Assembly (NCBI GenBank): GCA_943350635.1
Contig: CALRAI010000001.1
Span: 4,051 to 68,050 of the forward strand
Source: Candidatus Uhrbacteria bacterium
GTDB taxonomy: Bacteria > Patescibacteriota > Patescibacteriia > UBA9934
DNA length: 64,000 nucleotides
Direction: 5' to 3'
Both the position numbers and the translations under genes were made by a program. The notes below the pieces were generated by a model. The model saw only the letters and a list, made by a program, of their open reading frames with translations. It did not search any database and was not told the origin of the DNA. Shown here piece after piece: positions 2,888 to 28,864 of the stretch (the stretch's first letter is position 1; each line of letters starts with the position of its first letter).

Positions 2888-3197
2888 GGTTCCTCCCTCC
2901 GCTTCGTGGCGACTCGGGTAAAAGTTTTTCTGCTGCGTCACAAGTCGTTACGCCACAACGGCTTGCTTCGCTCGCCTGTGGCTGGACTCCTGGAAGCCTC
3001 GCTGAAAAACTTTCACCACTCGTCCCCACTACGCTTCGGTCGATCGGTGAGCCTCATCCGATTCACTTGCGCTAGTGGCGAGGGTACATTTTTCCAACGA
3101 GCACGGGCCCTCCCAGCTGCAGGTGAGCAAAGCGAACCGTCGCAGCGTGAGGGATTCGCGCGGAGTGCAGAATAATGTACCCGAGCCACCAGCGAGT
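2888..3197. repeat. MITE-like palindromic intergenic repeat, copy A (full length)
   Basis: Terminal inverted repeats (…GTGGCGACTCGGGTAAA… / …TACCCGAGCCACCAGCG…). The internal halves are reverse complements of each other. About 85-90% identical to copies at 4262-4393 and 28645-28864. Confidence 0.6.
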
Positions 3198-3203
3198 GAT
3201 GTA

Positions 3204-3803
3204 CTACGCCTTCGATCTCCCCGTCATTGCGCTTGCGAGTGTTACCTCGTCCGCATACTCAATGTCGGCGCCCATCGGGAGTCCACGAGCTAGACGCGTC
3301 ATCGATTTCCCGAACGTCGAGAGCTGACGCTGTAGATACATAATCGTCGTTTCGCCGTGAACGTCGGGGGAGAACGCAAGAATGAATTCAGAAAGCGTTG
3401 GGGTATTTTTTACATGATCAAGTAGCGCCTTCACGTTGAGCGTTTCTGGCGTGCGGCCGTCGATAGGATTCAGCGTGCCGCCAAGCACAAAATAGCGGCC
3501 TTTATATACGCCTGTGGCTTCGATCGTAGAAATATCTCGCGCTTCGGCAACAACGCAAAGTTTTGTGGCGTCGCGATTGGGATCGCTACAAATTTCGCAC
3601 AGTTCCGTTTCTGCAAACGTAAAACACGTTTGGCAATGCGTAATATTGCCAAGCTCGACAATTGCTCTTCCAATACTCGCCAGTTCAAGTTTGCTGAAAT
3701 GTAAAAGAGAAAACGCGTAACGGAGTGCGGTTTTCGGCCCCACTCCCGGAAGGCGACCAAGTGCGGCCGCGGCATTATGAATGGGAGTGGGGAATCGTCG
3801 CAT
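3204..3803 (-). CDS. recR: recombination protein RecR
   Basis: HhH motif (LPGVGPKTALRYAF), C4 zinc finger (HCQTCFTFAETELCEIC) and Toprim region. Classic ybaB-recR pair. Confidence 0.9.
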   Translation of the reverse strand: MRRFPTPIHNAAAALGRLPGVGPKTALRYAFSLLHFSKLELASIGRAIVELGNITHCQTCFTFAETELCEICSDPNRDATKLCVVAEARDISTIEATGVYKGRYFVLGGTLNPIDGRTPETLNVKALLDHVKNTPTLSEFILAFSPDVHGETTIMYLQRQLSTFGKSMTRLARGLPMGADIEYADEVTLASAMTGRSKA

Positions 3804-3806
3804 GTG

Positions 3807-4100
3807 TTACAGTCCGAGATTTTTAAACGCATCAAGCCCACCCATCTCTTTCATTTTTTTCATGAGCTCTACTTGCAGCTTGCTGTTCACGTCATTGAGC
3901 GCTTCTTTTACGCCAGCTTCAATTTTCGATCGATCCAAGTCTTCATCGATTTTTACGCCAAGTGTTTCGTGACTGCCGTTTACGGTAATCATCACCTTTC
4001 CACCCGCACCAACACCAACAATAATTACCTCATCAAGCATTGCCTTCATTGCCTTACTCTGATCGCGCATGTCCTTGATCTGCTTTATTTTGTTGAACAT
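3807..4100 (-). CDS. ybaB: nucleoid-associated protein YbaB/EbfC
   Basis: MFNKIKQIKDMRDQ…GVGAGGKVMITVNGSHE… matches the YbaB family. Likely start at the Met at 4100 (the ORF is open further upstream). Confidence 0.8.
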   Translation of the reverse strand: MFNKIKQIKDMRDQSKAMKAMLDEVIIVGVGAGGKVMITVNGSHETLGVKIDEDLDRSKIEAGVKEALNDVNSKLQVELMKKMKEMGGLDAFKNLGL

Positions 4101-4120
4101 AGAGGGGTGAACGTCCGCAT

Positions 4121-4215
4121 TTGGTCGATTTTGGGCTTGCACCATCGAAAACTTTCTCAACGTACCAGGAGTACGTCTCAAAAGCTTTTCTCGATGCGCG
4201 CCCAAACTCGCCGCA
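4121..4215 (-). promoter_or_regulatory. conserved upstream element with ACGTAC…GTACGT hairpin (copy 1, upstream of ybaB)
   Basis: Shares TTTCGGTGCGC…TGAGACGTAC-N6-GTACGTTGA…GCAAGCC(G/C)AAAAT with the copies at 20086-20197 and 49300-49396. All three lie 60-100 nt upstream of minus-strand, highly expressed genes. Confidence 0.45.
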
Positions 4216-4261
4216 AATGTGAACGTTCAGTATTAGTAATGATTATTAATCATGGACGAGC

Positions 4262-4393
4262 GTTAGTGGCGAGGATGCATTGTTCCAACGAGCACGCGCC
4301 CCACAACTGCAGTCGAGCGTAGCGAGACGTTGCAGCGTAGGGGATTCGCGCGGAGTGCAGAACGATGTATCCAAGCCACCAGCGAGTACAGAT
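4262..4393. repeat. MITE-like repeat, copy B (partial, 3' half)
   Basis: About 130 nt, roughly 88% identical to 3064-3197 of copy A. Ends in the same …CCAAGCCACCAGCGAGT terminus. Confidence 0.55.
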
Positions 4394-4402
4394 AAAATAG
4401 TA

Positions 4403-5913
4403 TCAATATTGCTTCTTCGGCGGAAGGCCGACGCCTTTTGGAGGAATACCTGGTGGCAAGCCAACGTTATTCGGTTTTGGTTCCGTTGATCCATCGCTGG
4501 ACGACGATGCGCTGCTCGACGACATCATCGGCGCGCGTTGTCCTTCTAGGTTTTTAAACGACGCATGCGTTGCATCCCAGTACAGCGGCACCATGCCGGT
4601 TGGTCCGTTACGATGTTTAGCGATATGTACTTCCGCGCGGGTTTTTTCCTCCGGCGTGAGTTCTTCTGGTTGATAGTTTCTATCCGCAGCTTTGCGATAC
4701 AAGAACATGACGACGTCCGCATCCTGCTCAATACTTCCCGAGTCGCGAAGGTGAGCGAGCTTTGGAATAGCAGGCTTTGTCATTTCCACCGCACGAGAAA
4801 GCTGCGCCAACGCGAGCACAGGAACATTGAGCTCACGCGCAATCTGCTTTAACCCGCGAGAAATCTCCGCAACTTCCTGCACACGATTGTCCGTTTTCTT
4901 TCGCGCTTCCATAAGCTGCAAGTAGTCGATAACAATCATCGAAAGTCCGTGCTCGCTTTGGAGCCGACGAGCCTTGGTGCGAATACTCATGATGGTTGCA
5001 ATCGGCGAGTCGTCAATAAAGATCGGTGCTTCCGAAAGTTTGCCGAGCGCCTCGCCGATACGCGGAAAATCATCAGCGCTTTCGCTCAATCGACCAGTAC
5101 GCAGCTTCCACAAATCCACATTCGCTTCCGCGGAAATCATACGATCGACGAGCTGCTCCTTGCTCATTTCCAAACTGAAGAATCCCACCGGTTTTCCGGT
5201 TCGTAAGGCTACATTGCGAATAATGTCCATAGCAAACGACGTTTTTCCCACGGAAGGTCGCGCAGCCAAAATAATCAGATCGGAGTTCTGAAGCCCAGCA
5301 AGAAGATTATCGATTCCCACGAATCCCGTTGCAACACCACGAAGCTTTCCCTTTTCTTTGTGAAGCTCATCGATTCTGTCGAATGCTTCTGTGAGTAATG
5401 TATGCAACGGCGTGAACGATTGCTTAATGAAATTTTGTGACACGTTGAATAGCCGACGTTCTGCCTCGTCGAGTAACACGTCAACGTCTTGCGATTCGTC
5501 GAATCCAAGATCGGTAATGTCACTTGCGGCACGAAGTAACCGACGTAGCGCCGCTTTCTTTGCAATAATATCGGCGTGGTGAGCGACGTGTGCGGCGGTA
5601 GTCGTTACGTTCGTGAGTTCGACAAGCGCCGTTCGTCCACCAATTTGTTTGAGCACGCCTTTTTCCTCGAGTCTGTTTCCCAGCGTCAACACATCGATCG
5701 GCTCATGACGGTCGACGAGCTCGAGCATCACCTCGTACAAAATGCGATGGGAATCTTTATAGAAATCCTCCGATCGTAACGCGTCGCCAATCTTGAGTAG
5801 CACATCCTGATCCAACAAAAGCGAGCCCAGCAGCGAACGCTCGGCTTCAAGATTGTGAGGAGGAATGCGCCCAACGTCGGCCATAGATAGCGCTATGGTA
5901 ACCGACTCTGGCA
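4403..5913 (-). CDS. dnaB: replicative DNA helicase DnaB
   Basis: DnaB N-domain (NLEAERSLLGSLLLD), Walker A (ARPSVGKTSFAMD), Walker B (IVIDYLQLM) and an arginine finger region. Start chosen at MPESV (5913). Unusual ~50-aa Ser/Pro-rich C-terminal tail. Confidence 0.9.
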
Positions 5914-9012: not shown

Positions 9013-9042
9013 TTTTGGTGCGCCGAGCGGGGATCGAACCCG
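9013..9042. repeat. distal att direct repeat (30 bp copy of tRNA-Lys 3' end)
   Basis: TTTTGGTGCGCCGAGCGGGGATCGAACCCG is identical to 19984-20013, which includes the 3' 27 nt of tRNA-Lys. Confidence 0.75.
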
Positions 9043-9400
9043 ATGATGGCAATTTACGAAAGATGAGCAATAACAGGCAAAAACGCAGGAAAAGCCATTG
9101 GCTGTTGCTGTTTCTCAATTCTCATAGTTACACATTGTTACTCGACAAAATACACAATCCATCACTTTATGGGCAACGGGTGGGCAACACCTCCGGGGAG
9201 TGATGGAATTTTGGCTCATCTGATTCGATGCTATCAATGACGATCAGATGCGATCTGGATTATGGAATCCGTTTGTTTATTTTAATTTCTCAATTCTCCT
9301 TATTTCAGTGGATGGAGCCTCTCCTCAAGAAAAGGGCAGCATGCATATCGGGTGATATACTTTGCAGAAGGATTGGCCCATTTAATTACTAAATACCCAT

Positions 9401-10105
9401 ATGGGCGATATAGAAGTGAAATACTCCTCCAGAGGGAAACAACCCCTAACCGCACAGAACCTTAAAACGAAGGGGTGGTGGAGATTCGCGCAAGTTATTT
9501 TTGTACTTGGATCAATTTTGCTGTTTGCCTTGACCCTCCTCTTTGCTGGTGCCGCGATTAGTGAAACCACTCCTCTCGTTCCCAGTGAAAGCTCGATTAC
9601 TTGCAACAATGGCCAGGTTTTTAACCTGAAGAGCTTTGATGAAAGTCTTAACATATACACGTACGGCTTCAGTCCTGTAGATAGTAATGGTCGATTCACA
9701 GACTATTCCGATGACGCAACAGCAAAAATGTTCTGCACAGCGTTGAACCGTGATCGCTTCGAACTCTCTCCTTTACCGGAAGGAAGCTCAATAACACCCG
9801 CGCGCAAGGCTGAACTTGATGCCATCATAATCAAGCAGCTTCAGAGTCAAACGCAAGAAGAGTGGGCTGCAAACATGACGAAAAATTCCGTCAGAAAGGC
9901 TAGTTATTCAGACCTCGAGGATATTCACTCTCGTGAGACTAGTAAGCAAGGTGAGAACATGGGCTATTCTATTGACGCAAAAAAGGATTATTCTGAGGTA
10001 TTCGTTATACTAGGCTTCTTCGTTTTAGCGTTGATCATCGAAGCAGGGCTTTTGTTTGTAGTAAGAGGAATTGTTCGGTACACACTTATTAGTAAGTTCT
10101 TTTAG
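9401..10105 (+). CDS. hypothetical membrane protein (N- and C-terminal TM)
   Basis: Two hydrophobic helices flank a Ser/Thr-rich extracellular region. Confidence 0.4.
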   Translation: MGDIEVKYSSRGKQPLTAQNLKTKGWWRFAQVIFVLGSILLFALTLLFAGAAISETTPLVPSESSITCNNGQVFNLKSFDESLNIYTYGFSPVDSNGRFTDYSDDATAKMFCTALNRDRFELSPLPEGSSITPARKAELDAIIIKQLQSQTQEEWAANMTKNSVRKASYSDLEDIHSRETSKQGENMGYSIDAKKDYSEVFVILGFFVLALIIEAGLLFVVRGIVRYTLISKFF

Positions 10106-10251
10106 CATTTTTCACGAATCGGGCCAGAAAGGAGCGTCATGAGAGCAAACTACAGCATTGCAAGAATGTATTACTCACGAATCTTTACCTTTTCCTTTTA
10201 CACGAACCATAAATTGGGCTGCGTGTGAGAAGGATTTCGTGTTTAGCGGAA

Positions 10252-10842
10252 CTATGAACTTCTGTTCTGTTCCGATTCATTGAGTACAAAACTAGCCCAT
10301 TGCGCTTTCATTTCTTGTTCTAAGAAATAATGACATGACCCAAAATAGCCGCGACAATACTTTTCGGTCAACCGAAGAAACAGAGGAGCTTTTACCTCGA
10401 TCATGAAACGACGGGCTTCTGGCGAAAGACCCTTAGATTGACGGAGGTTATCAGTCAAATCAGCCAGTTTTATACGCCAAGCATCTTCATCGTCCGCTTC
10501 GATCAATTTCGCCGTCATCAGCATCCAGCGCTCAGTGGAGTTTTCTATATCGAGCGGATGAGTGCCGAGTGCCACAAAGTGAATGGTTCGGTCAGTGAAT
10601 CCCATATCTCTAAGTTCCTGAAAGGAAACACCTCCATCTTCGACGACATCATGGAGTAATGCAGCAAGAAACAAGTCATCGTCGCAATCGTCACAATGGT
10701 GGCACGAAATAACGAGATCTCTCACTCGAAAGGAATGCAGATAGTTCGGTTCGTCTGGTAAGCTTTTACGAGTACCCTGAATACGCTCGCGAACGAGCGT
10801 CTCTGCCCTCCCTTTCAATTCTAAATACTGTGTGAGTTCCAT
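10252..10842 (-). CDS. HD-domain small alarmone hydrolase-like protein (SpoT/Mesh1-type HD)
   Basis: HSFRVRD…AALLHDVVEDGG…FG matches the (p)ppGpp hydrolase HD motifs H…HD…D of RelA/SpoT. 196 aa with no synthetase domain. Confidence 0.55.
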   Translation of the reverse strand: MELTQYLELKGRAETLVRERIQGTRKSLPDEPNYLHSFRVRDLVISCHHCDDCDDDLFLAALLHDVVEDGGVSFQELRDMGFTDRTIHFVALGTHPLDIENSTERWMLMTAKLIEADDEDAWRIKLADLTDNLRQSKGLSPEARRFMIEVKAPLFLRLTEKYCRGYFGSCHYFLEQEMKAQWASFVLNESEQNRSS

Positions 10843-11134
10843 ACAAAATACGTGAAGAATAAACGCAAAAGCGATTGAGAGATATGACCCAGATTGCTCT
10901 GGATGAAATCTCCCAACCGCTTAATGCAGTCAGTTCTCACATCGCTTGTGGCTCTCAGCAGATTTCCCTGATTGCCTACCCTCTTGGAGGGAGTGATGTG
11001 GGTGTTCGTCTTTACGACGGACGCACCTCTTTGCTCTTACTTCTTCACTATAACTGAAAAATGGGGTTTGGTCAAAGCATCCCAGTAAGCTAGAGTGATG
11101 TTTCGCTAATTTTATTCAGAGACTTTGTACTGGA

Positions 11135-12583
11135 TTATTCAATGCTTCCAGATGGTAGCTTTGTAAGATCTGTATTCGTTATACCCAAACCAAGCTCGCG
11201 CATGATTGAATACGCAGCTGAACCATCTTTCATGTAAACGCGAGTGCAAGTAGCCGGATCAACGTACCAAGCCTCTCCATGTTGCTCTACCTGAAGAAGA
11301 ATTGTTCCCCTCACTTGATTCGCGATTTTATTAGTTAGGCACACGTTTGGAGCATCTTTAATATCGGCAGCTTCCTCGACCGAGGGAATTGTTTCTAGAT
11401 CTTTATTGGTAATACCAAGGCCGAAGGATCGCATCATGTTATACGCGGTGGTTCCATCTTTCATATAATAACGTAGCGAATCTGATGGATAGATGTACCA
11501 TGCCTCGCCATGCTCTTCTACCTGGAGCAATATTGATCCTGAGAGGCGCTCAACTAAAGCCGTATCTAACTTTTCTGGGTCATAAGCTCCTGCAAGATCT
11601 ATATCTGTTGACGATGAGGAATCTATCGATTCGGTGTCAGTAGTATCTGTACTGACAGTCGCTGATGGTGTCGGAATGGAATAACTATACGTCCAGTAAT
11701 AATAACTGCTTCTATTTCCGTAGAGGTCTACTGCAGAGACATTAAGATAGTAGGTTCCTGGGCCATAAAGGGTCGCGAGACTGCCATTTGTGGTTTGATA
11801 TGTTCCGTACGTATAGGGATCTTGAGCGCTTGTTCCGAGATAAACATAATAGCCTGCAACCCCGCTCGCGTCTGATACCCCCTGCCAAGTGAAAAAGGGA
11901 GTCGAATCAGTTCCTGACTGCCAAGAACCAAGAGTTGACGCTGATGAATCTGCATAAACAGAAGCCGTGGCACTCGAAAAATCGGGTGCAGTAATGTCGG
12001 AATATGTATATGAAGAAGATGTGCTAGTCGAGATTGAATCAGAACTCCAGACCCGACATTCATCGTCCGAGTCAAAAAGATAGATTGTGTCGGAAATACC
12101 ATCAAGCGAATAACCTCCAATATCAATATAAATGTATTTATTTTCGTATCGCCACATGCTTAAACATCCAATCCCATACTCTACAAGGTAGTCATAACCT
12201 GATGTATCTTCAACTAAAATTTGATCAGATCCGATATCACTGAGTATGAAATATTTTTTTAAGTTTAGGGAATCAACCGAATTCACCGTACAGGCCTTTG
12301 TATCAAACATACCTTGAACAAGAATCGTATTTCCATATCCCGGAGAATAATAGGTATCAATCCAAAATGTCTCTCCAGTAGAGAAGTCAGAACTTGAGCA
12401 ATCCCAGGAATAGCCGATTTTATAATAAGATCCGTAACCGTCAGCGATAACTAGATCGTTGTAGGAGCTGCTCAATACTACAAAACCCTTAAGATTAGAT
12501 GCGAAAACATTCTTAATAGGCGCCAATATTGTAACCAGAATGCAGACAACGACTATCTGTAACTTAAAATTATTCATATACAT
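11135..12583 (-). CDS. secreted repeat protein with two C-terminal ~50-aa tandem repeats
   Basis: Signal peptide. Ser/Thr/Tyr-rich FN3-like middle region. C-terminal repeats SILLQVEEHGEAWYIYP…LGITNKDL and TILLQVEQHGEAWYVDP…LGITNTDL. Confidence 0.55.
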   Translation of the reverse strand: MYMNNFKLQIVVVCILVTILAPIKNVFASNLKGFVVLSSSYNDLVIADGYGSYYKIGYSWDCSSSDFSTGETFWIDTYYSPGYGNTILVQGMFDTKACTVNSVDSLNLKKYFILSDIGSDQILVEDTSGYDYLVEYGIGCLSMWRYENKYIYIDIGGYSLDGISDTIYLFDSDDECRVWSSDSISTSTSSSYTYSDITAPDFSSATASVYADSSASTLGSWQSGTDSTPFFTWQGVSDASGVAGYYVYLGTSAQDPYTYGTYQTTNGSLATLYGPGTYYLNVSAVDLYGNRSSYYYWTYSYSIPTPSATVSTDTTDTESIDSSSSTDIDLAGAYDPEKLDTALVERLSGSILLQVEEHGEAWYIYPSDSLRYYMKDGTTAYNMMRSFGLGITNKDLETIPSVEEAADIKDAPNVCLTNKIANQVRGTILLQVEQHGEAWYVDPATCTRVYMKDGSAAYSIMRELGLGITNTDLTKLPSGSIE

Positions 12584-12976
12584 AATTTAAATCTCTAGTA
12601 ACTCTTATCCAAAGTTTTTTAACCAATCATGAAAGTCTCGAATGATGGGTTTTCGCTTTCCAAGCTGTATAAACAAATGATCCTGACGAGCATCTTCTTC
12701 CTTTTGTTTTTGATCCCTTTCTTCTACAGTTTTCCGATATTCGATTTCACCGCGCAATAAAGCACGTCTCTCGGAACGGCAATGACCAGGTTTTATATAA
12801 AGAGTGCGTAAAACTTCTCAGGAAAAGAAATTTTCACACTCACGACATCCTATTTCTTTTGGGATTTTTCCCTCAGAAAACCACATCTGTGATTCATCAA
12901 TCTCATCATTACAAGCCGGACAGAGATATGTTGCGACTTGGAAAATAACCATATATAGGCTGGCGTAATTGATCGT

Positions 12977-13231
12977 TTATAAATTGTTGAAAAATCTTAC
13001 AACGATTGAGCCAAGATGGCTTGCAATAACGAATGCAATAATCATGCTTCCAAATCCAACAATCAAAACTAGCGCACTTTTTAAAACATTTGGCTTCTCT
13101 CCCTCAATAACAAGTCCTTCTATTTGTTTTTCAGAAGTCGGTTTCGCTTCTACTCCACAAGATGAACAGAATCTTGCGTTATCTATAGTTTTCTCTCCAC
13201 AATTCCTACAAAACATATATTTTACAAGCAA
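12977..13231 (-). CDS. zinc-ribbon membrane protein (small)
   Basis: CRNCGEKTIDNARFCSSCG double CxxC motif followed by a TM helix. Confidence 0.45.
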   Translation of the reverse strand: MLVKYMFCRNCGEKTIDNARFCSSCGVEAKPTSEKQIEGLVIEGEKPNVLKSALVLIVGFGSMIIAFVIASHLGSIVVRFFNNL

Positions 13232-13758
13232 TCAGCTTTACTAAATGATGCAAAATAACTTTGTCCCGTTTCACTGACCACATATGAATATTCCATATTT
13301 ATATCTCGGTTCAAAAGACTTTTTGTGTCACTATTTTGACAGAGACTTGTTCCAAGATAATTTTTCAAATATGCGTTTGAAAGACTGCTCGTATCCGCGC
13401 CAGTAAGGGTGTAATGATAACGAATAGCCCCGGGCTCTGCTGTAATGTCAGTAAGTGTTGTTAATTCATCCGTATGATACGGCAATGGCATGCTAGCCTT
13501 TGTTTGCCTAACTGTCTCGCTAATGAGTTCAGCTTTTGATGTGTTGCTTATGGAAGACGAAGAGATTCCTTGTGTTAAATAACGACCTACGCCGATTGCC
13601 AATATAGAAACGATAACAGAAATTACGCTAATAAACGTGGATTTTCTTTTTGTTCTTTCGACAGAGATGGCGGTTGATCCAGTAACAACTTTTTCTCCAC
13701 ATTTATTACAGAATTTTGCACCATCCTCAAGTTTATTGCCGCATTTTTTGCAATTCAT
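13222..13758 (-). CDS. zinc-ribbon membrane protein with extracytoplasmic domain
   Basis: MNCKKCGNKLEDGAKFCNKCGEKV, then a TM helix and a ~110-aa outside domain. Overlaps its neighbours, so operon-like. Confidence 0.5.
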   Translation of the reverse strand: MNCKKCGNKLEDGAKFCNKCGEKVVTGSTAISVERTKRKSTFISVISVIVSILAIGVGRYLTQGISSSSISNTSKAELISETVRQTKASMPLPYHTDELTTLTDITAEPGAIRYHYTLTGADTSSLSNAYLKNYLGTSLCQNSDTKSLLNRDINMEYSYVVSETGQSYFASFSKADCL

Positions 13759-13767
13759 AAAATATTG

Positions 13768-14088
13768 TTAGTAATCAAATGTTTCTTCGCAAACATACAA
13801 TCCGTTAGAACTATCGGGTACTTTACAATTCTTTCCGCACTCAAAGTCGTCGCTCGAATTATTTCGTTGCTGTTTTAGATTTGTAGCCCAGGAAAGACAT
13901 GAGGCGCGATCATCAAATTGCGGACTGTAAATGTATTGGTCTGTGCAAGCCAAGCAGCCATCAGGATAATAAAAACCGAGCCACGTTTCTTTTTGGGAAA
14001 GACAGCCTGCGCCAGACAAAAGCAAGGTGAGAATGAAGAGGGGCACGATTAGCGATCTTTTCATACTACTTCGATATATAGCTTCCAA
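13768..14088 (-). CDS. small secreted Cys-rich protein
   Basis: Signal peptide and 6 Cys residues. 106 aa. Confidence 0.4.
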   Translation of the reverse strand: MEAIYRSSMKRSLIVPLFILTLLLSGAGCLSQKETWLGFYYPDGCLACTDQYIYSPQFDDRASCLSWATNLKQQRNNSSDDFECGKNCKVPDSSNGLYVCEETFDY

Positions 14089-14992
14089 TAGCGGACTGTA
14101 GGAATGCGACGGCCTGCACGATGACGAAAATAAGCACCGGATTAATATCGACGAATAAACTTATAAACCAAGATATCACGAAAGTGAGGAGGAGGGATTT
14201 TATGATAGTTTGCATCGTCCAGCCCCCGCTGTGCTCTACTTTTGGCTTCTCCCTCTGATCGAGCAAGAATTCCAGATGCTTCAGTATTTCCGAACTGTTT
14301 CTGAATTCAAATTGGGAAATTCCGCAAAACTCTTGAGAACCCTGCTCAAAGAGCAGATCGTCAAAATTCTTTTTTACAAAATCAGCCTTTTCTTCTCGTT
14401 CACTATCTGAAAGATCTTCAGTTTTCTTGAACCAAATATTCTTTCCGTATTCGCTTTCCACGATTTGTAAGTCTGAGTCTGTGGCGTCCTTCACTTTATC
14501 CTCTATTCTATTTAAACCCATCTTTATCCTTTCGACCGTCTGCCTTAAATACTTTCTATAATCCTCTCGCGAGAGAGAATCCGAATGAAGAGAAAGGATG
14601 AAAAAGATCTCAGCATAAGACACGGCTAGATTTAACTTTTGCCATTCGATCTCCTTATTCAATCGCTCGAGAAGTTCTTTGCGATGGTACTCGGAGGGTG
14701 CCTCCAAGATGGACTCTAGCACTACGCCGTCTTTCACTTCTTCCTTTAGGGGCGGCTCGATGGATTTGTATTTTAAGCGAACGAAGACCTCAATCGGGTT
14801 TGTGTTTATTTTGTATTCGTAAATCTCGTTTATATAAAAACAGTCGTCATTTATGCTCCTGTGAGAATCGAATTCTTTCCTTTCTGGATAAAAGGTTAGG
14901 GTCAATGAGCTCCAATCATCATCAATTGAAATAGTCCTGTCTTCATCCATGACTTCAATGTTTGGAATGCTCATATTTATTTTGCAGTGCAA
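14066..14992 (-). CDS. hypothetical protein with C-terminal membrane anchor
   Basis: Charged coiled-coil-rich soluble region with a double TM at the C-terminus. Overlaps the flanking genes. Confidence 0.45.
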   Translation of the reverse strand: MHCKINMSIPNIEVMDEDRTISIDDDWSSLTLTFYPERKEFDSHRSINDDCFYINEIYEYKINTNPIEVFVRLKYKSIEPPLKEEVKDGVVLESILEAPSEYHRKELLERLNKEIEWQKLNLAVSYAEIFFILSLHSDSLSREDYRKYLRQTVERIKMGLNRIEDKVKDATDSDLQIVESEYGKNIWFKKTEDLSDSEREEKADFVKKNFDDLLFEQGSQEFCGISQFEFRNSSEILKHLEFLLDQREKPKVEHSGGWTMQTIIKSLLLTFVISWFISLFVDINPVLIFVIVQAVAFLQSAIGSYISK

Positions 14993-15873: not shown

Positions 15874-15901
15874 ATTTTATTAACCTTACAATAACAGAAA
15901 A

Positions 15902-16042
15902 CACAAAGCCCGCCGCTAGCCGACACCTTGCGGTGTCCATACCCCTTTCGAGATATGACCATACAAAGGAAGCTGAACGACGGGTTCAGTACTTTGTATG
16001 GGTTTACTGCCATACCTCACGGTTGATCCGAGAGGGTTAGGC
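15902..16042. ncRNA. conserved structured element, copy 1 (nested hairpin CCATACAAAG…CTGAACGACGGGTTCAG…CTTTGTATGG)
   Basis: About 140 nt, alignable to 40373-40516 with compensatory changes in the outer stem. Lies in a divergent intergenic region of the island. Strand and function unknown. Confidence 0.4.
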
Positions 16043-16098
16043 AAATTCAATTTTCGAACGTTGTTATTATGGAATTTTTCGGCTAACGTTGTCAAAGA

Positions 16099-17010: not shown

Positions 17011-17133
17011 TACTCAACATTTTGTGCTAAATAAAATCGGCTATCTTTTCACGATTTCGTGAATTAATCTGGCTGCTTAAATTCGAACGACGTTCTATTT
17101 TTATAAAAGTACTCTCTCAAAGTACTTTTAATT

Positions 17134-17403
17134 TTGTTTATGCGTATGCAAGCAATATCGACAAATGACACGTTTCCTTCCCGCGATTGGGTACTTATCG
17201 CAACCCTCTCCTCCCTCGGCTTCCCGATTGAAGCCGTGGAGCAAGACTCACAGGCTCGGACAATCTTTCACATACAGCGCTCCGACAGCCTGGACGACGT
17301 TATACAGCGATTCTGGAGGCGTGAGCTGCGTGTTGAGCCTCAGGAGTTCAACCAGCACATGAAGCTCGTGAAGGCTCGCATGTATGACGCTAAGATTTTC
17401 TAA
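17134..17403 (+). CDS. hypothetical small protein
   Basis: 89-aa ORF preceded by the palindrome AAAAGTACT-N7-AGTACTTTT at 17096-17121. Confidence 0.35.
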   Translation: MFMRMQAISTNDTFPSRDWVLIATLSSLGFPIEAVEQDSQARTIFHIQRSDSLDDVIQRFWRRELRVEPQEFNQHMKLVKARMYDAKIF

Positions 17404-17427
17404 GACATTCAAAATTAATGCGTATAT

Positions 17428-17979
17428 ATGGCGAGAAAAAGAATGCTTCACGCAAAGATCTGGGACAGCAATCAATTCAACTCATTAAAACCACTACTTC
17501 GTTTACTTTACATAGGTTTGGTCACTATCGCGGATGACTATGGCTGTTTTCGTGCAGAGGGCACGTTTCTCAGGCGAAAGCTGTTACATTCAGACAGGAT
17601 TAGCCCGGCACAAATTGATGCAATGTTGCAGAAAATTAACGAAGTTGGATTGATTGAATATCGTCAAACAGAATTCGGTTCCATCGGCATTCATCCGAAG
17701 TGGGACACGTATCAGAAGCTCCGTAAGGACATTGCTAGGTCTAGCGACTTTCCTGACCTCGACGTATACGCCATGGATCTGCCATGGCTACGTGACGTCA
17801 ACATAAGAGAAGACAAGATAAATAAAGAAAGCTCAGAATCAGGGGAAGAAAAGAGAATTGAAATTAGTGAAAGAGAACTTGCGCCGATCTTCTCCGGAAG
17901 AGAGCAGACAGAGCGGGCTCTGGCTGCATTCAAGAAGAAACAGAAAGAGAAACTGAATCCATTCTCTGATCTTCTATGA
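17428..17979 (+). CDS. hypothetical protein (possible winged-helix DNA-binding/replication-associated)
   Basis: ORF immediately upstream of the xis/int module. The assignment is speculative. Confidence 0.4.
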   Translation: MARKRMLHAKIWDSNQFNSLKPLLRLLYIGLVTIADDYGCFRAEGTFLRRKLLHSDRISPAQIDAMLQKINEVGLIEYRQTEFGSIGIHPKWDTYQKLRKDIARSSDFPDLDVYAMDLPWLRDVNIREDKINKESSESGEEKRIEISERELAPIFSGREQTERALAAFKKKQKEKLNPFSDLL

Positions 17980-18533
17980 GTAAAAACTCTTGTGACGATT
18001 ATCAGAAATTATCAGTGTATCGGCTTCGGGATTTTGGATGCTTTTCATACTCTTCTTCGCATGATCTCTCCTGGGGGAAAGGTGAAAATCGGAGCAGTAT
18101 CGGCCTCACCACCTTCCTTGAAGACGATCCTATAAGAATGAGGCTCAGCTATATCTACTCCAGCCGATACAGTGATCGAAAGCTATCGGTGGACGATGAT
18201 GTTCTACTATCAAAAACTCAATGTCATTTCGGTGGCGTTCGTTGGTGGATGCATTGCCCGGTGCTTCGTAATAGCCTGCCATGTAATCGACGTACCGCAA
18301 TTCTTTTCATGGTTGGTGGCCGATTTGGATGCAGAGATTGCCATGATCTTACCTATGAAAGCCGAAAGATCAGGCCATCGCTACGGCCGTATCTCTCACT
18401 TCTTATACCAATGACCCTCGATCAAAAGTATGCACGTTCCCGATACTGGAAAGGGCGAAAAACCAAGCGAACTCGAAGAATAGATGCAAAGTGGGATGCG
18501 TGGGAAGAACCAACGGGATTAATGAACTTCTAA
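17976..18533 (+). CDS. hypothetical Cys-rich (zinc-binding?) protein
   Basis: CHFGGVRWWMHCP…CNRR…CRDCHD cysteine/histidine cluster. Overlaps the upstream gene by 4 nt. Confidence 0.4.
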   Translation: MSKNSCDDYQKLSVYRLRDFGCFSYSSSHDLSWGKGENRSSIGLTTFLEDDPIRMRLSYIYSSRYSDRKLSVDDDVLLSKTQCHFGGVRWWMHCPVLRNSLPCNRRTAILFMVGGRFGCRDCHDLTYESRKIRPSLRPYLSLLIPMTLDQKYARSRYWKGRKTKRTRRIDAKWDAWEEPTGLMNF

Positions 18534-18614
18534 TTATTTCGATCGTGTAGAATGGGAGCGTTGCTCATTGAGGAAGAAATTCCTCCCTGGAACGTCGCTC
18601 CTTAACAACTAAAT

Positions 18615-18863
18615 ATGACCAAAGATGAAAATCTCGCTTCTGAGAGTAGTTTTCTGAATCCACTTGAACTCGCTGAACTGCTACGACTCTCGCGTGCTAG
18701 CGTGTACCGCCTCGTGGAAAGGCGAAAGATCAGCTTCCATCGATTACCGAGAGGATTGCGGTTTAGTAGAAGAGATATTGATGGCTACTTACAGAAATGC
18801 AGGGTTGAATCTTTGGAGGATGTATATGAGCGCGAGAAAAATAAGACAAAGCTGGTGGGTTGA
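18615..18863 (+). CDS. xis: excisionase/AlpA-family HTH DNA-binding protein
   Basis: LELAELLRLSRASVYRLVERRKISFHRLPRGLRFSRRDIDGYL is a typical Xis/AlpA HTH_17. Directly precedes the integrase. Confidence 0.6.
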   Translation: MTKDENLASESSFLNPLELAELLRLSRASVYRLVERRKISFHRLPRGLRFSRRDIDGYLQKCRVESLEDVYEREKNKTKLVG

Positions 18864-19953
18864 TTTCCGCTTCGGATTTCAACGCTACCGTATACGCAGT
18901 CCAGAATGCAGTCGTGCTGGAGCGCAAGCATATGAAGCAACGCTTCGAAAGATGCTCGCCGCTGGGGAGAGTATTGATGAAGGTCAGAAAAAGTTAGTGA
19001 AGTTTCAAGACTTTGCCGCCGATTGGTTCCGGGTGTATGTGATGAACAATAACAAGTTATCAGTACAGCTAACACAACGAGGCATACTCGATATCCATCT
19101 ACTCCCACACTTCGGTAAGTACGGACTCCCGGAGATCACATCACAGGTGGTTGAACGTTATAAGGCAAAGAAGACCAACGAAGGACTTGCGCCAAAGTCG
19201 ATTAACAATCAACTTGGAGTACTCCGACGATGCTTGCAGATTGCTATGGAATGGGGCTCGCTTGATAAGCTCCCTATGATCAAGATGCTCAAAACTCCAC
19301 CACCTGTCGTTATATTCCTCAACGAGGCTGAATGTAAGGCTCTCTTAGCGGATCATATGGAACCAATGGCGAATCTGATGATTCTGACTGCGTTGCGCAC
19401 TGGGATGCGTTTGGGTGAGCTGTGTGGCCTATCGTGGGAGGATATCGACTTCAAGAGCGGGATTCTTACCGTAAGGCATTCGTTCGTTCGGGGTGAAATG
19501 AACTCCCCCAAAAGTAATAAGATCCGACATATTCCGATAACAGCCGATTTAACCGAAGCTTTGAAGAAGAGCGCAAAACCCTGTGGCCTTGTCTTCCACA
19601 TCGATAAGAAGCCGATCACGGGCTATGCAGGCTCGGAAATACTCGGTCGTGCATGTATTCGTACGGGTATAAAACACATCGGTTGGCACAAACTCCGTCA
19701 TACCTTCGCTTCACAGCTTGTGGCGCGTGGAGCGAACCTGAGGGCTGTTCAAGAGCTCCTTGGGCACTCAACGATTCAAATGACGGAACGATACGTGCAT
19801 CTCGCTCCTTCGTCGCTCCGACAGGCGATGTCAGTATTGGAAGAAACACCAAAGGGAGAAAGTTTGGGCAACCCGTGGGCAACGGCACTTATTCAACAAG
19901 TACGTTATGAAGCGTTACCAAAGCTCAAAATGACCATGAATGTTGGGAAATAA
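18826..19953 (+). CDS. int: tyrosine-type site-specific integrase
   Basis: N-terminal SAM-like domain. Catalytic R…HKLRHTFAS…LGHSTIQMTERYVHL (R-H-R-Y). Adjacent to tRNA-Lys. Start taken at MSARKIRQSWW. Confidence 0.9.
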   Translation: MSARKIRQSWWVDFRFGFQRYRIRSPECSRAGAQAYEATLRKMLAAGESIDEGQKKLVKFQDFAADWFRVYVMNNNKLSVQLTQRGILDIHLLPHFGKYGLPEITSQVVERYKAKKTNEGLAPKSINNQLGVLRRCLQIAMEWGSLDKLPMIKMLKTPPPVVIFLNEAECKALLADHMEPMANLMILTALRTGMRLGELCGLSWEDIDFKSGILTVRHSFVRGEMNSPKSNKIRHIPITADLTEALKKSAKPCGLVFHIDKKPITGYAGSEILGRACIRTGIKHIGWHKLRHTFASQLVARGANLRAVQELLGHSTIQMTERYVHLAPSSLRQAMSVLEETPKGESLGNPWATALIQQVRYEALPKLKMTMNVGK

Positions 19954-19986
19954 AAAGATTCCGATGCCATTAACATCAGAATCTTT

Positions 19987-20061
19987 TGGTGCGCCGAGCG
20001 GGGATCGAACCCGCGACCACGAGCTTAAAAGGCTCTTGCTCTACCACTGAGCTACCAGCGC
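19987..20061 (-). tRNA. tRNA-Lys (anticodon TTT)
   Basis: Folded by hand as a cloverleaf: acceptor GCGCTGG/TCGGCGC, anticodon loop CTTTTAA, T-arm GGTTCGATCC, encoded CCA. Confidence 0.85.
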
Positions 20062-20085
20062 ATGGGAGAGCTTCCTCGTTTTGTC

Positions 20086-20197
20086 TATTTTCGGCTTGCC
20101 ACGTCGTTCGCGAACGACGTGGCTTGCTGCGTCGCACATTCGTTCAACGTACTAAGAAGTACGTCTCACGAATTGTGCTCCTGGCGCACCGAAACTA
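20086..20197 (-). promoter_or_regulatory. conserved upstream element (copy upstream of tRNA-Lys) with an extra 24-bp perfect palindrome
   Basis: Same GTTTCGGTGCGC…GAGACGTAC-N6-GTACGTTGA…GCAAGCCGAAAAT as the ybaB and HU copies. CCACGTCGTTCGCGAACGACGTGG is inserted at 20098-20121. Confidence 0.45.
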
Positions 20198-20278
20198 GCC
20201 TAAAACGCGAAAGCTCTCATATAAATCTCGAACAAATAACGTGCGCAGGATATCAGATTCGGGGGAATCTGTGAAGGT

Positions 20279-24367: not shown

Positions 24368-24373
24368 TCGCCC

Positions 24374-26175: not shown

Positions 26176-26183
26176 CTGCATCT

Positions 26184-26591
26184 ATGGTGAATGATCGTCC
26201 AAAACGTCGTCACTCAAAGCTTCGTATTGCTGCCGTGATTCACATCGTGCTTTTTTTGCTGATCGGTTTTGGTTTTGGGGAAGAGTATTTGCGGAACAAG
26301 GATATTGAGGATCAAATCGCTCGCATGCAGGCAGAAAACGCAGAGCTTGATGCGGATCGTCTTTCGTCGCTTAAGCTGATCGATACGCTTTCAAGCTCGT
26401 ATTACGTGGAAAGCGAAGCACGACAAAGCGGCATGGGAAAGCCTGGTGAACAGCTGATTATTGTGCAGGAGGGTGTGTTGAATGGATCAACAACAACGAC
26501 GACATCCACGCACAGCGATGTTCCAAATCCATTACGATGGTATCAATACTTTTTTGATCATGATGCGTTTGCTGAGCTTACGAACGTATGA
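26184..26591 (+). CDS. FtsB/DivIC-like septum formation protein
   Basis: Single N-terminal TM followed by a coiled coil (DIEDQIARMQAENAELDADRLS). Sits in a cell-division/cell-wall gene context. Confidence 0.45.
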   Translation: MVNDRPKRRHSKLRIAAVIHIVLFLLIGFGFGEEYLRNKDIEDQIARMQAENAELDADRLSSLKLIDTLSSSYYVESEARQSGMGKPGEQLIIVQEGVLNGSTTTTTSTHSDVPNPLRWYQYFFDHDAFAELTNV

Positions 26592-27481
26592 CCGTGGTGT
26601 GGCACCACGAACACCACGTGCATGAACGACGAGTCGCCCCACACCGCTCGCGAATGCTGTGGTGGATAGCTCTTTCGATATTGGTGTTGTGTGGAATTGG
26701 TGGAGGCAGTTGGTTTTTGTGGAAGGGTTGGCGGTGCGGAACATTACCGGTAATTGTTGAGCGCATGACATACGTGCCTATTGGGTACGAGGATGGCCAT
26801 GCGTTGTGGTTTCCGTCAATCGCGCGATTAGCACATGGCATTGCTGCGGCAGATGGACGCACCATGTTAACGGAGGCCGACTACGCACAGGCAATCGACG
26901 CGACCGTTCGGAGAAATGCATTGGAGGACATTGCGCGTGAAGAACATATTGTAGTATCCGACGCGGATGTGCGGGCAGCGGTGGAATGGTCCGACGACAT
27001 TCGCGCATTCATAACCATGGCCGGATGGAACGACAGCGAATATCTTGCGTACGTTGAACGATCGTTTGTGGTGTCGACTCGGGTAAATGCCGCAGTACTT
27101 GATGATGAGCAATACCAAGAAAAGTCTCACGAACGCATGGCGAATATTCAATCAAAGCTTGCCTTGGGCATTGCGTTTGCGGACGTCGCGCAAGAATATT
27201 CGGAGGATCCTGCCACAGCGCAGTCCAGGGGAAGTTTTGGCTACGTGCTGCCAAGGGATGTGGATCCGGCATTTGCGTCAGTATTTCTTTTGCCATCACA
27301 AACAGCTTCAGAGGTGATTACTACGGCAGATGCATACTGGATTCTTCGCACAGAGGACTCGGTAGTAGATGAAAGTGGCACGCGAGTGCTGCTCCGTGGA
27401 ATTGCGATCAAGAAACAATCACTCGCCGAAGTGCTCGACGCCAAAGCCTCGGCAATTGTGCCAAGGTTGTGGGTGAGATAA
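26588..27481 (+). CDS. parvulin-type peptidyl-prolyl cis-trans isomerase (SurA/PrsA-like)
   Basis: N-terminal TM, chaperone-like region and a PpiC rotamase domain (IAFADVAQEYSEDPATAQSRGSFGYV). Confidence 0.65.
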   Translation: MTVVWHHEHHVHERRVAPHRSRMLWWIALSILVLCGIGGGSWFLWKGWRCGTLPVIVERMTYVPIGYEDGHALWFPSIARLAHGIAAADGRTMLTEADYAQAIDATVRRNALEDIAREEHIVVSDADVRAAVEWSDDIRAFITMAGWNDSEYLAYVERSFVVSTRVNAAVLDDEQYQEKSHERMANIQSKLALGIAFADVAQEYSEDPATAQSRGSFGYVLPRDVDPAFASVFLLPSQTASEVITTADAYWILRTEDSVVDESGTRVLLRGIAIKKQSLAEVLDAKASAIVPRLWVR

Positions 27482-27512
27482 CAAAAAGTCCCCGAGAGAA
27501 TCGAGGACGTTT

Positions 27513-27588
27513 TGGAGCCATTTCCGGGAATCGAACCCGGGACCTCTGCTTTACGAAAGCATTGCTCTACCAGCTGAGCTAAAATGGC
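27513..27588 (-). tRNA. tRNA-Thr (anticodon CGT)
   Basis: Hand-folded: acceptor GCCATTT/AAATGGC, anticodon loop TTCGTAA, T-loop GGTTCGATTCC, CCA encoded. Confidence 0.8.
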
Positions 27589-27604
27589 GAAAATGGATGT
27601 TTCA

Positions 27605-27681
27605 TGGAGCAGGAAACGGGGATCGAACCCGCGACCTTCTGCTTGGGAAGCAGACGTTCTACCACTGAACTACTCCTGCCC
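27605..27681 (-). tRNA. tRNA-Gly (anticodon CCC)
   Basis: Hand-folded: acceptor GGGCAGG/CCTGCTC, anticodon stem TCTGC/GCAGA with loop TTCCCAA, T-loop GGTTCGATCC, CCA encoded. Confidence 0.8.
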
Positions 27682-27764
27682 AGTGGGCGAATGTATACCA
27701 TTCTTGAGGGAACTCGTCTAGATTCTTTTGTGAATGCTTTGAGTGTGAGATTATAGAGATAACT

Positions 27765-28616
27765 ATGAAAAAATCCTTTCGCTCACGCTTCTCAAGCCGA
27801 TACGTCGCGCTGCTTATTCCTTGCCTACTTATTGCGGTAGCCGTGACGTGGCGAGTGTATACATCGGAGGCGAACGTTACGGGACAAGTGGTGCTTTCAA
27901 GCGCCGCGCAACGTCATGTGGAGAACGTACAATGTACTGGAGCCTGCGAGAATATATTGCTGGTGAGCAACCAAGAACCAGGAGTTCGCTATTACGCGGG
28001 TGGCGATTGTCCCACATGTATCGAGGCGAATATTTGGGCAGGGCAAACGCGTGAAGGGGAAATCACCATCAACGGCTACGCGTTCTATGACGGCGTACAA
28101 GTAAACCTTGCACCACAAATTTTTGACGCAGAAGTGCTCGATGGACGACCTCTTGGGTGGGTGTTGCCATTATACCCACCAGGAACAGTATTTCCGTCGG
28201 ACGGACCGGATCCATTTATGGACCCATCATTTACTATTCGCCTGAAGGACACAGGTGATGAAAACGTGATCGACACGTTTGAATTTATTCCAACACCAGA
28301 ATCGTCGGCGGAGAATATTACCATCGTAACAGACCACGCTTCTGGGCGCGTTACAGCATTTGATACGTGCACGCAAACGAATAAGGATACGGATATTTAC
28401 GCGCTGTACCAGGCGCCAAACCTGCATGGTCCGCAAAATTCCGATTCGTACGCTGTGAACATTGAACATCGGGAATCGTTAGCTACCGGAACAATTACCG
28501 GAGGAACAAGCGTATTTCAAAAAGAATTTATCTTTGAAGAGCTTAGCGAACAAAAGCTTCATGTTACTGCAACCATCGGCGACGCAACGTTTACGTTCGA
28601 TCTTGTAAAGGATTAG
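27765..28616 (+). CDS. secreted hypothetical protein
   Basis: Signal peptide (MKKSFRSRFSSRYVALLIPCLLIAVAV). No known domain recognised. Confidence 0.5.
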   Translation: MKKSFRSRFSSRYVALLIPCLLIAVAVTWRVYTSEANVTGQVVLSSAAQRHVENVQCTGACENILLVSNQEPGVRYYAGGDCPTCIEANIWAGQTREGEITINGYAFYDGVQVNLAPQIFDAEVLDGRPLGWVLPLYPPGTVFPSDGPDPFMDPSFTIRLKDTGDENVIDTFEFIPTPESSAENITIVTDHASGRVTAFDTCTQTNKDTDIYALYQAPNLHGPQNSDSYAVNIEHRESLATGTITGGTSVFQKEFIFEELSEQKLHVTATIGDATFTFDLVKD

Positions 28617-28644
28617 TACTCCGCTCCACTCCTCAACGGGTCCT

Positions 28645-28864
28645 GTTCTTATTACTCACTCACCGGTGGCTCGGGTGAATCAGATGAGTCTCACTGATCG
28701 ACCAGAGCGGAGTGGGGACGAGCGGTGAACATTTTTCAGCGAGGCTTCGTGAATGCACAGCTGCAGTCGAGCTGAAAGCGAGACGTCGCAGCGTAGCGTT
28801 GTGTGACGCAGCAGAAAAATGTTTACCCGAGTCGCCACGAAGCGGCGGGAGGAGCCCGAGCCAT
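28645..28864. repeat. MITE-like repeat, copy C (inverted orientation)
   Basis: Its reverse complement aligns with copy A, including both terminal inverted repeats. Lies in the 5' region previously included in the ftsE ORF. Confidence 0.55.

Follow-up and report, generated by a model that had tools for sequence, protein, structure and literature searches.

A candidate family of structured, non-coding interspersed repeats in Candidatus Uhrbacteria

Our computational analysis of a 64,000-nt stretch of Candidatus Uhrbacteria DNA (the window, to which all coordinates without another label refer) identified a non-coding repeat unit of approximately 135 nt (132–141 nt) that is present four times, as units X, Y, B and C, according to both alignment and a hidden Markov model (HMM) scan. 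The explanation to which we give the highest probability, roughly 0.6, is that these units belong to a new ERIC/REPIN-like family of structured, non-coding interspersed repeats, which is specific to Uhrbacteria and probably spread via a single-stranded intermediate.

Identification of four repeat units in the window

A first-pass annotation of this DNA had reported multi-copy, non-coding palindromic repeats in intergenic spacers, and such repeats are indeed found there, far beyond chance expectation. The HMM built from the units produced exactly four full-length matches in the window (E = 4e-37 to 1e-34), all other matches being noise, and a degenerate pattern for the apical hairpin (29–31 nt) also matched four times, with 0.00 matches expected from 100 shuffles. 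Repeat detection paired 2888-2968 with 28776-28856 as an inverted repeat (arms of 81–90 nt, 82–84% complementary), 2993-3082 with 28659-28748 as a second inverted repeat, designated I1 (82% complementary), and 3069-3197 with 4260-4387 as a direct repeat (82–88% identical); taken together, 2888-3082 and 28659-28856 are reverse complements of each other over two arms (81 and 90 nt). The annotation had counted three copies, A, B and C, but because the basic unit of approximately 135 nt occurs four times, its copy A is better described as two diverged units, X and Y, arranged head-to-head around a 26-nt linker. The four units form two subfamilies, X/C (78% identical) and Y/B (81% identical), with an identity of 56–60% across subfamilies and of 58% between X and Y in the aligned core.

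Unit X (2900-3037, minus strand), the left half of the former copy A, is a full-length member of the X/C subfamily and has type 2 ends, which read GAAGCG-N-AGTGGGGACGAG ... CCCGAGTCGCCAC-GAAGCG on its sense (minus) strand (nhmmer E = 2e-35; covariance model (CM) score 133.9 bits; minus-strand fold of -57.9 kcal/mol, z = -5.7). Unit Y (3064-3198, plus strand) is a full-length member of the Y/B subfamily with type 1 ends, GCTAGTGGCGAG ... CCCGAGCCACCAG, outside of which lies its own outer helix, P0 (CACTTGC/GCGAGTG, duplex -11.1 kcal/mol); its scores were E = 4e-37, 137.5 bits and -59.5 kcal/mol (z = -6.5), and its terminus lies 5 nt from the recR stop codon. The linker (3038-3063), which joins X and Y at their 5' ends, belongs to a 5' extension of approximately 45 nt, GTGAATCnGATGAGnCTCACnGATCGACC, which X and C have in common, as indicated by repeat I1 and by the alignment.

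Unit B (4256-4387, plus strand), which had been taken for a half-length copy, is a full-length single unit of the Y/B subfamily (E = 1e-34; 136.6 bits; -55.9 kcal/mol, z = -5.4). Unit C (28704-28844, plus strand) is full-length, of the X/C subfamily and with type 2 ends (E = 2.5e-35; 134.9 bits; -57.4 kcal/mol), and its 5' extension covers 28659-28703 on the plus strand. The description of copy C as inverted holds relative to X only, since C has the same orientation as Y and B. Within the C extension, a 12-nt segment, GGTGGCTCGGGT (28665-28676), which had been regarded as the left terminal inverted repeat (TIR) of copy C, resembles the end of another unit in inverted orientation; a weak nhmmer match to model positions 109-134 was obtained at 28656-28681 on the minus strand, and a similar fragment adjoins a copy in a related locus (L037).

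Copy A had been proposed to fold as one long hairpin, and in silico a fold of approximately 300 nt is obtained for it on the plus strand (-138.7 kcal/mol, z = -4.9), compared with roughly -108 to -121 kcal/mol, depending on the span folded, for two separate X and Y hairpins on that strand; each single unit is already a complete hairpin. The TIRs quoted for the repeats are present (GTGGCGACTCGGGTA at 2906-2920 and TACCCGAGCCACC at 3179-3191), but they represent merely the outer part of a hairpin that extends over the whole unit, of which the complementary ends are GTGGCGAGGGT... and ...ACCCGAGCCAC.

The first-pass annotation had named membership in a known non-coding RNA, such as the signal recognition particle (SRP) RNA or RNase P RNA, as the outcome that would overturn it, and no such membership was found. 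None of the units matched any of the 4227 families of Rfam 15, among which SRP RNA and RNase P RNA would be, at gathering thresholds in a search of the whole window, and a search of 2800-4500 at E ≤ 10 returned only noise (e.g., snoZ6, E = 8.7).

Structure, covariation and strand specificity of the repeat

The four window units are predicted to fold into single irregular, rod-like hairpins (-55.9 to -59.5 kcal/mol, z = -5.1 to -6.5), and the opposite strands of X and C are 10–14 kcal/mol weaker (-48.2 kcal/mol for X on the plus strand and -43.0 kcal/mol for the other strand of C). The apical stem-loop conforms to GCnGC-A-Gnn-GAGC-loop-AGCGA-nnC-GTn-GCnGC, and several helices are interrupted by conserved purine-rich internal loops, including recurrent 5'-CGAG-3'/3'-GAGC-5' blocks, i.e., tandem G.A mismatches. 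Unpaired parts such as CAGCGAG, GAGC-loop-AGCGA and CAGCAGAAAAA are strongly conserved, and it is the core of the unit that is conserved best and the outermost stem that varies most.

Covariation was evaluated on a MAFFT alignment of 28 copies. Of the 29 pairs predicted by RNAalifold, 22 show compensatory double changes, and when two outer pairs were added, 95.5% of the 859 cells of the resulting 31 pairs were standard pairs and both sides changed in 24 of the 31. The covariation score of 0.487 was not reached in any of 500 shuffles (0.215 ± 0.012), and in a control in which the 3' partners were slid by 1–3 columns, pairing fell to 26–49%, with four to six doubly changed pairs.

Just outside the conserved type 1 ends lies the outer helix P0 (5–10 bp), the sequence of which differs from copy to copy while its complementarity is kept. 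P0 is nearly unique to each copy (16 distinct 7-mers among 18 copies), and the duplex with its own partner is more stable than with non-partners (mean -10.9 versus -5.7 kcal/mol), a difference that none of 2000 permutations reached. In type 2 copies, which include X and C, the ends are formed by a conserved, purine-rich GAAGCG...GAAGCG motif. It is possible that P0 varies through compensatory changes that arise at each locus while conversion homogenises the cores; alternatively, palindrome-templated repair might extend the stem into the flanking DNA, or P0 might be acquired at insertion. Insertion of the element into the loop of a pre-existing hairpin, with P0 being target DNA such as a terminator, was considered and rejected, because orthologous spacers with different copies differ in P0 (L013b versus L038), because many copies carry conserved ATCG...CGAT outside the variable part, and because no U-tracts follow.

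The fold is selected on one specific strand and not as a double-stranded palindrome. This conclusion is drawn because G.U/U.G pairs greatly outnumber A.C/C.A pairs among the paired cells (53 versus 6) and because the sense strand is the more stable one in 25 of the 28 copies (mean 8.7 kcal/mol, Wilcoxon p = 5e-7). It holds whatever the direction of the flanking genes: among 11 copies that are antisense to both flanking genes, 10 retain the sense-strand advantage (mean -6.3 kcal/mol). A dependence of the asymmetry on the direction of transcription was also considered, and no link was found in a comparison of five co-oriented copies (-10.3 kcal/mol) with the 11 antisense copies (-6.3 kcal/mol; Mann-Whitney p = 0.18).

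Distribution of the family in other genomes

The apical-hairpin pattern was used to scan one genome per species from 185,579 species, which returned 41 loci. Approximately 24 of these are located in eight metagenome-assembled genomes (MAGs), mostly of Uhrbacteria, and carry approximately 27 full-length copies as determined by nhmmer and the CM (108–158 bits), whereas the other matches, which are in high-GC genomes, are attributable to chance. The number of copies per MAG ranges from 1 to 11. Uhrbacteria TrH-25oct19-103 is the richest, with 10 pattern loci and 11 copies, one of them truncated, so that the pattern caught 10 of its 11 known copies; Ike-50m-33 has five copies and LJ-3-15m_bin-0684 four, and the remaining carriers are TrH-25oct19-208, a Patescibacteria MAG from Hainich groundwater, and three MAGs labelled 'Gammaproteobacteria'. 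A metagenome scan yielded only five loci with three new copies and did not widen the host range, and no copies were found in viral contigs or in phage, plasmid and E. coli collections. Identical copies are present in independent NCBI, ENA and Logan assemblies of the same organism, including the MAG contig GCA_943349025.1. The RecR protein encoded in the window shares 70% identity with RecR of Candidatus Uhrbacteria GW2011_GWD2_52_7, which, on protein sequence, places the source genome in Uhrbacteria.

The three MAGs labelled 'uncultured Gammaproteobacteria' are SRP192515_co2_1, SRP192515_co2_178 and SRP062349_co6_358 (loci L017, L035, L038, L046 and L048). In SRP192515_co2_1, the loci are gene-for-gene syntenic with Uhrbacteria/Patescibacteria loci (L035 with L023, and L038 with L013). 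Because at least one such MAG shows this synteny, the label of these MAGs is probably wrong.

Turnover, orientation and mosaicism among related genomes

The copies take up nearly the whole of short spacers, with 5–60 nt separating them from the genes on either side, and in many cases they immediately follow a stop codon. At well-resolved sites with co-directional neighbours their orientation is mixed (five sense and eight antisense). The atpD-atpC spacer carries copies in four species, one in the sense orientation and three, of other subfamilies, antisense, and opposite orientations were also observed at two further orthologous, syntenic sites.

Presence of a copy varies between relatives as well. 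A sense copy lies between a hypothetical gene of 283 aa (hyp283) and ftsE in the window and in TrH-25oct19-103 (L036), and none is found there in Ike-50m-33 (L027). Between atpA and atpG, L037 carries a copy, and in L028 and L016 just 1–3 nt separate the two genes. Both the window and L056 (RecR 90% identical) have a copy between dnaB and ybaB, a spacer that in L055 (RecR 91% identical) is empty and 92 nt long. The copy of L056 has the position and orientation of unit B but is of another subfamily, and its outer stem has Watson-Crick pairs in place of the tandem G.A. The dnaB-ybaB spacers are too diverged in nucleotide comparison to define the exact insertion borders.

Decay and mosaicism are also apparent. 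Truncated copies were found in L047, L035 (3121-3204) and L055, and other damage includes a copy in L035 with an internal palindromic insertion, a copy in which the apex is replaced, nested copies and end fragments; the short-read contigs L003 and L004 break within repeats. Near-identical cores occur with different end types (L041 and L039 versus L008 and L037a), and subfamilies cross species boundaries, with unit B (wB) being 90% identical to a copy of Ike-50m-33. These two features of the sequences together indicate that copies have undergone recombination or gene conversion with one another.

Further small repeated hairpin modules (e.g., GGATCCCCGCCTGCGCGGGGATGAC, CAACGGGTCCTGTCGCCTCGGACCCCGTT and the GAATCAACGGGTG motif) adjoin copies of the family and give the spacers a mosaic, BIME-like appearance. 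They were seen in the downstream flanks of L016 and L043, in the L027 spacer (3005-3254), and in L034, L018 and L037, and a partial copy of one module is located at 28630-28650 in the window.

Borders of the copies and search for a mobilising enzyme

The first-pass annotation had proposed a target-site duplication (TSD) analysis as a check, and no copy-specific duplication was found at the borders: the longest direct repeat between flanks had a mean length of 5.07 nt, compared with 4.69 nt in the permuted null, and the excess consists of motifs that belong to the element. What the flanks show is inverted complementarity (5.43 versus 4.55, with none of 300 permutations reaching the observed value). 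No insertion sequence (IS) with the same ends was found in the window or in approximately 290 kb of related loci, and across this sampled DNA of approximately 350 kb tblastn with an approximate IS200 TnpA sequence as query gave no match at E < 0.1. In a Pfam search of 20 window proteins and of the genes called in L001, L005 and L049, the sole mobility enzyme was the tyrosine integrase of an island at a tRNA-Lys gene of the window.

Origin of the family and alternative explanations

In the model that we favour, a single-stranded form of the sense strand, either single-stranded DNA (ssDNA) or RNA, would serve as the intermediate by which copies spread and are homogenised, and a trans-acting enzyme encoded elsewhere in the genome might recognise it by the conserved core. 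Copies would settle in those few spacers of the compact genomes that tolerate them, typically 5–60 nt from genes, and would then be passively co-transcribed in either orientation, so that resident copies may be passive hairpins in transcripts. Long hairpins are formed by both strands and could influence the processing and stability of mRNA as well as read-through.

Several observations weigh against this model. The cross-species identity of 88–90% is above what we would expect for neutral spacer DNA, and this high identity, together with the locus-specific compensatory P0 helices, would also fit selection on resident copies, i.e., a host function rather than parasitism alone. The copy number is low (approximately 5–11 per genome in the pattern scan), unlike typical REPIN or miniature inverted-repeat transposable element (MITE) bursts, and the sampled DNA of approximately 350 kb yielded neither a transposase nor any other candidate for the mobilising enzyme. 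Furthermore, no clean filled/empty pair was available between near-identical genomes that are alignable at nucleotide resolution, and no insertion event was observed directly, so that the presence/absence pattern could be due in part to deletion or gene conversion.

The main rival, considerably less probable than spread via a single strand, is that the copies are structured RNAs kept by the host, either as a cis-acting mRNA element or as a multi-copy small RNA, with the repeat-like behaviour being secondary; the rod, along which tandem-G.A loops of the CGAG type recur, would then be a platform for protein binding or processing. It is the cross-species conservation and the G.U bias that keep this explanation alive, the tolerance of G.U far above A.C being as expected for RNA read from one strand. 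The strong covariation, the long invariant unpaired blocks, the identity of up to 88–90% between species and the locus-specific, compensated P0 helices are all consistent with it, as is the maintenance of some positions, such as the hyp283-ftsE spacer with the same orientation in two species and the atpD-atpC spacer in four. On the other hand, a host-selected RNA is difficult to reconcile with the mixed orientations, including opposite orientations in the same spacer between species, with copies missing in close relatives, with truncated and nested copies, with the lack of any matching Rfam family, and with the lack of a conserved promoter or terminator at a fixed distance. In the 28 copies, no conserved promoter-like motif was found within 90 nt upstream and no U-tract downstream, and generic scans gave nothing above shuffle expectation. 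Independent small-RNA genes were rejected as a candidate on the same 28 copies, which have neither a promoter-like motif at a fixed upstream distance nor a downstream terminator.

A broader proposal, which we regard as doubtful, is that the repeat, rather than being a passive MITE-like relic, represents a new strand-specific structured nucleic-acid element of the Candidate Phyla Radiation (CPR) bacteria, being either a mobile element that acts as a folded single strand or a domesticated RNA/ssDNA platform. In its mobile form, the CGAG tandem-G.A blocks would be recognised by an enzyme so far linked to no repeat family, and in its platform form, each locus would keep the element closed via the compensatory P0.

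Another explanation, which appears unlikely, is a DNA-level site that acts as a folded single strand, such as an attC/Xer-type site, a lagging-strand priming site or a protein-loading hairpin, for which mobility would not be required. Folding that is strand-specific and independent of the direction of transcription fits such a site, and the change from G.A to Watson-Crick pairs in the outer stem of the L056 copy is what palindrome-templated DNA repair would give. Tandem G.A blocks and GCGAAGC-type mini-hairpin loops are very stable in DNA too, which is also counted in its favour. The copies, however, lie outside cassette arrays and without a consistent neighbour gene, and the sole integrase of the window belongs to the unrelated tRNA-Lys island. 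Opposite orientations at orthologous operon sites argue against a fixed relation to the direction of replication, although inversions of the locus might account for them.

Less probable still is the classical MITE, a deletion derivative of an IS with a DDE transposase which moves by cut-and-paste, in which only the TIRs are functional and insertion duplicates the target. The units do resemble MITEs in being short (132–141 nt, under ~600 bp), non-coding and multi-copy, with inverted-repeat ends, and a different palindrome of 20 nt found in these genomes has a direct duplication of 7–8 bp at its flanks, from which it follows that duplicative insertion of small palindromes does occur there. The units themselves have no copy-specific direct repeat at their borders, where inverted complementarity of the flanks is significant instead; they are constrained over the full length, with the outermost stem least conserved; their one-strand asymmetry is unexpected for a double-stranded cut-and-paste substrate; and no IS with these ends is present in the sampled DNA. 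Of the MITE-like description in the first-pass annotation, the dynamics of a mobile or turn-over element are supported. The anatomy is not, with no TSD, a conserved core rather than conserved ends and a hairpin that covaries on one strand, and no related transposase was seen in ~350 kb. Finally, chance resemblance or an assembly artefact is refuted by E-values to 1e-37, by the identical copies in the NCBI, ENA and Logan assemblies and by the approximately 27 copies in other genomes.

Genes and promoter-like motifs around the units

Copy A is preceded by a gene of 336 aa without a Pfam match (1851-2861, plus strand) and followed by recR (3204-3803, minus strand). On the minus strand, ybaB starts with an ATG near 4100 and dnaB extends from 4403; unit B lies between the dnaB stop codon and ybaB and is antisense to both. 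Unit C lies between the hypothetical gene of 283 aa (27765-28616, plus strand) and ftsE, with ftsX also nearby, and has the same orientation as both neighbours. Open reading frames (ORFs) that span the units are spurious over-extensions. As the first-pass annotation had recognised, the long ORF 28712-29563 is such a case, in which copy C had been absorbed into ftsE: the ftsE called in public assemblies has 227 aa and starts at ATG 28880.

An extended -10-like motif, TGCTATACT (28864-28872, plus strand), is located 7 nt ahead of this ATG and outside the repeat. The TGnTAnnnT-ATG arrangement recurs in orthologous spacers, and the motif, which was not called by a generic sigma-70 scan, is a putative ftsE promoter that would give a leaderless ftsE mRNA. 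Because both the motif and the true ATG lie 3' of C, unit C is upstream of the putative ftsE promoter and not within ftsE. A second motif of this kind, TGATACTAT (4397-4405, minus strand), overlaps the dnaB stop codon and is kept right after dnaB in five genomes, as seen in an alignment of the spacers of the window, L055, L056, L057 and L058. Since unit B starts approximately 10 nt downstream of this motif on the minus strand, it would be the 5'-most part of the ybaB transcript, in antisense orientation and just downstream of the predicted ybaB promoter.

More generally, TGnTAnnnT motifs occur 6–9 nt before starts or right after preceding stops and are kept between species (window 28864-28882, plus strand, and 4397-4405, minus strand; spacers of L023, L027, L035 and L036). 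Such motifs escape the generic sigma-70 scan. Their conserved placement suggests that mRNAs in these genomes have very short leaders or none.

Other repeats and features of the window

A second, unrelated family of hairpin repeats of approximately 125–140 nt was observed on the minus strand at 4097-4237, 20056-20226 and 49281-49421. RNAalifold predicted 44 pairs, 27 of them compensated; at least 17 copies are present in Uhrbacteria loci, and no Rfam family was matched. In the window, its copies immediately precede ybaB, tRNA-Lys and the HU gene and share their orientation, and the family is missing from the ybaB leader of close relatives. It could represent a mobile promoter/5'-UTR (untranslated region) module or a cis-regulatory RNA. 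Its architecture, a conserved core with a variable closing stem, is the same as that of the first family, which suggests a general mechanism in these genomes and shows that the first family is not an isolated case.

A 20-nt perfect palindrome, ACGTCGTTCGCGAACGACGT, lies inside a copy of the second family (20101-20120), flanked by the direct repeat GCAAGCC, and the same palindrome lies inside a copy of the first family (L035, 2982-3001), flanked by GCACAGCC. Judging from these flanks, it looks like a tiny insertion with a target duplication of 7–8 bp at a GCA(C)AGCC site.

The island mentioned above is an integrated segment of approximately 11 kb (9013-20061), delimited by identical 30-nt direct repeats at 9013-9042 and 19984-20013, the second of which is the 3' end of tRNA-Lys (19987-20061). 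Its tyrosine integrase is encoded at 18664-19953 (Pfam Phage_integrase, E = 2.8e-33), and most of its genes have no Pfam match. Two LOOT RNA motifs (RF03000) were detected on the minus strand, at 15922-16043 (91.5 bits), which is within the island and directly upstream of a DUF3267 zincin-peptidase gene, and at 40395-40517 (77.7 bits), directly upstream of a gene for a tRNA_anti-like OB-fold protein. The region 41461-43393 (plus strand) encodes a DNA methyltransferase (N6_N4_Mtase) with a ParB N-terminal domain, followed by a shorter second methylase ORF. A ParB-HTH protein is encoded near copy A (476-1723, minus strand), with no link to the repeats seen.

In our literature search, we found no earlier account of such structured repeats from Uhrbacteria or from CPR bacteria in general. 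The genomes of CPR/Patescibacteria are approximately 1 Mb in size and tightly packed, and at least two families of structured repeats persist in them with intact structure, one of which folds on a single strand whatever the direction of transcription. They offer a tractable case for the old REP/ERIC question of whether such repeats are parasites that move as single strands or RNA/DNA structures recruited by the host; the one-strand, transcription-independent constraint would be more interesting if it reflects a new mobilisation mechanism or a host function. In practical terms, the repeats break short-read assemblies and cause over-extended ORFs, such as that of ftsE, in MAG annotation.

Comparison with known repeat families

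The ERIC properties compared here are those reportedly described by Hulton in 1991, by De Gregorio in 2005 and by Wilson and Sharp in 2006. Like ERIC/IRU, the Uhrbacteria repeat is an imperfect palindrome over its whole length (~127–130 nt in ERIC/IRU) which is located in intergenic or untranslated regions, in or next to operons and in either orientation, with a low to moderate copy number, conservation across species at differing locations, variants with internal insertions and a mobiliser that is not known. The likeness is one of kind and not of homology: there is no sequence similarity, and blastn of unit C against 5,426 complete genomes of E. coli, which carries ERIC, gave no match. The Uhrbacteria family also differs in belonging to another phylum (CPR) and in that no TA-type duplication was seen. 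To our knowledge, recurrent CGAG tandem-G.A blocks and a hypervariable outer helix have not been described for ERIC.

REPINs are hairpin-forming REP doublets mobilised by RAYT transposases. A single-stranded hairpin has been proposed as the intermediate of their movement (PMC3116915). The Uhrbacteria repeat resembles them in consisting of non-autonomous extragenic hairpins (~70–110 nt or more in REPINs) with predicted folding as ssDNA or mRNA and with compensatory changes, and in the occurrence of singlets and decayed copies beside full units. In REPINs, however, the ends (REPs) are invariant and the spacer varies, whereas the Uhrbacteria repeat shows the reverse, with an invariant core and a variable outermost stem. 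REPINs are present in hundreds of copies, compared with approximately 5–11 per genome, and at most 11 in one MAG, for the Uhrbacteria repeat; no RAYT/IS200-like gene was seen in the sampled DNA of the latter (~350 kb), and its end lacks a conserved GTAG-type tetranucleotide, the sequence at that position being variable.

Correia/NEMIS of Neisseria, RUP and BOX of Streptococcus and RPE of Rickettsia are likewise short, non-coding, gene-adjacent repeats with inverted ends, the transcripts of which can form stem-loops; general surveys of stem-loop repeat families are available (PMC2267715, PMC3049150). The Uhrbacteria repeat differs from these MITEs in that neither a TSD nor a related IS was found and in that it covaries on one strand over its full length.

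Integron attC sites offer a further comparison. They are imperfect palindromes of 57–141 nt that act as a folded single strand, in a strand-selective manner and with unpaired or extrahelical bases. The Uhrbacteria repeat is similar to them in its imperfect palindrome, its strand-selective folding as a single strand and its unpaired bases. Its copies are single and lie inside housekeeping operons (recR, dnaB/ybaB, ftsE and atp), in contrast to cassette arrays; their orientation is mixed, the core is conserved while the centres of attC sites vary, and no integron integrase is located nearby. Motifs in ssDNA and RNA are indistinguishable by comparative analysis (PMC5737381).

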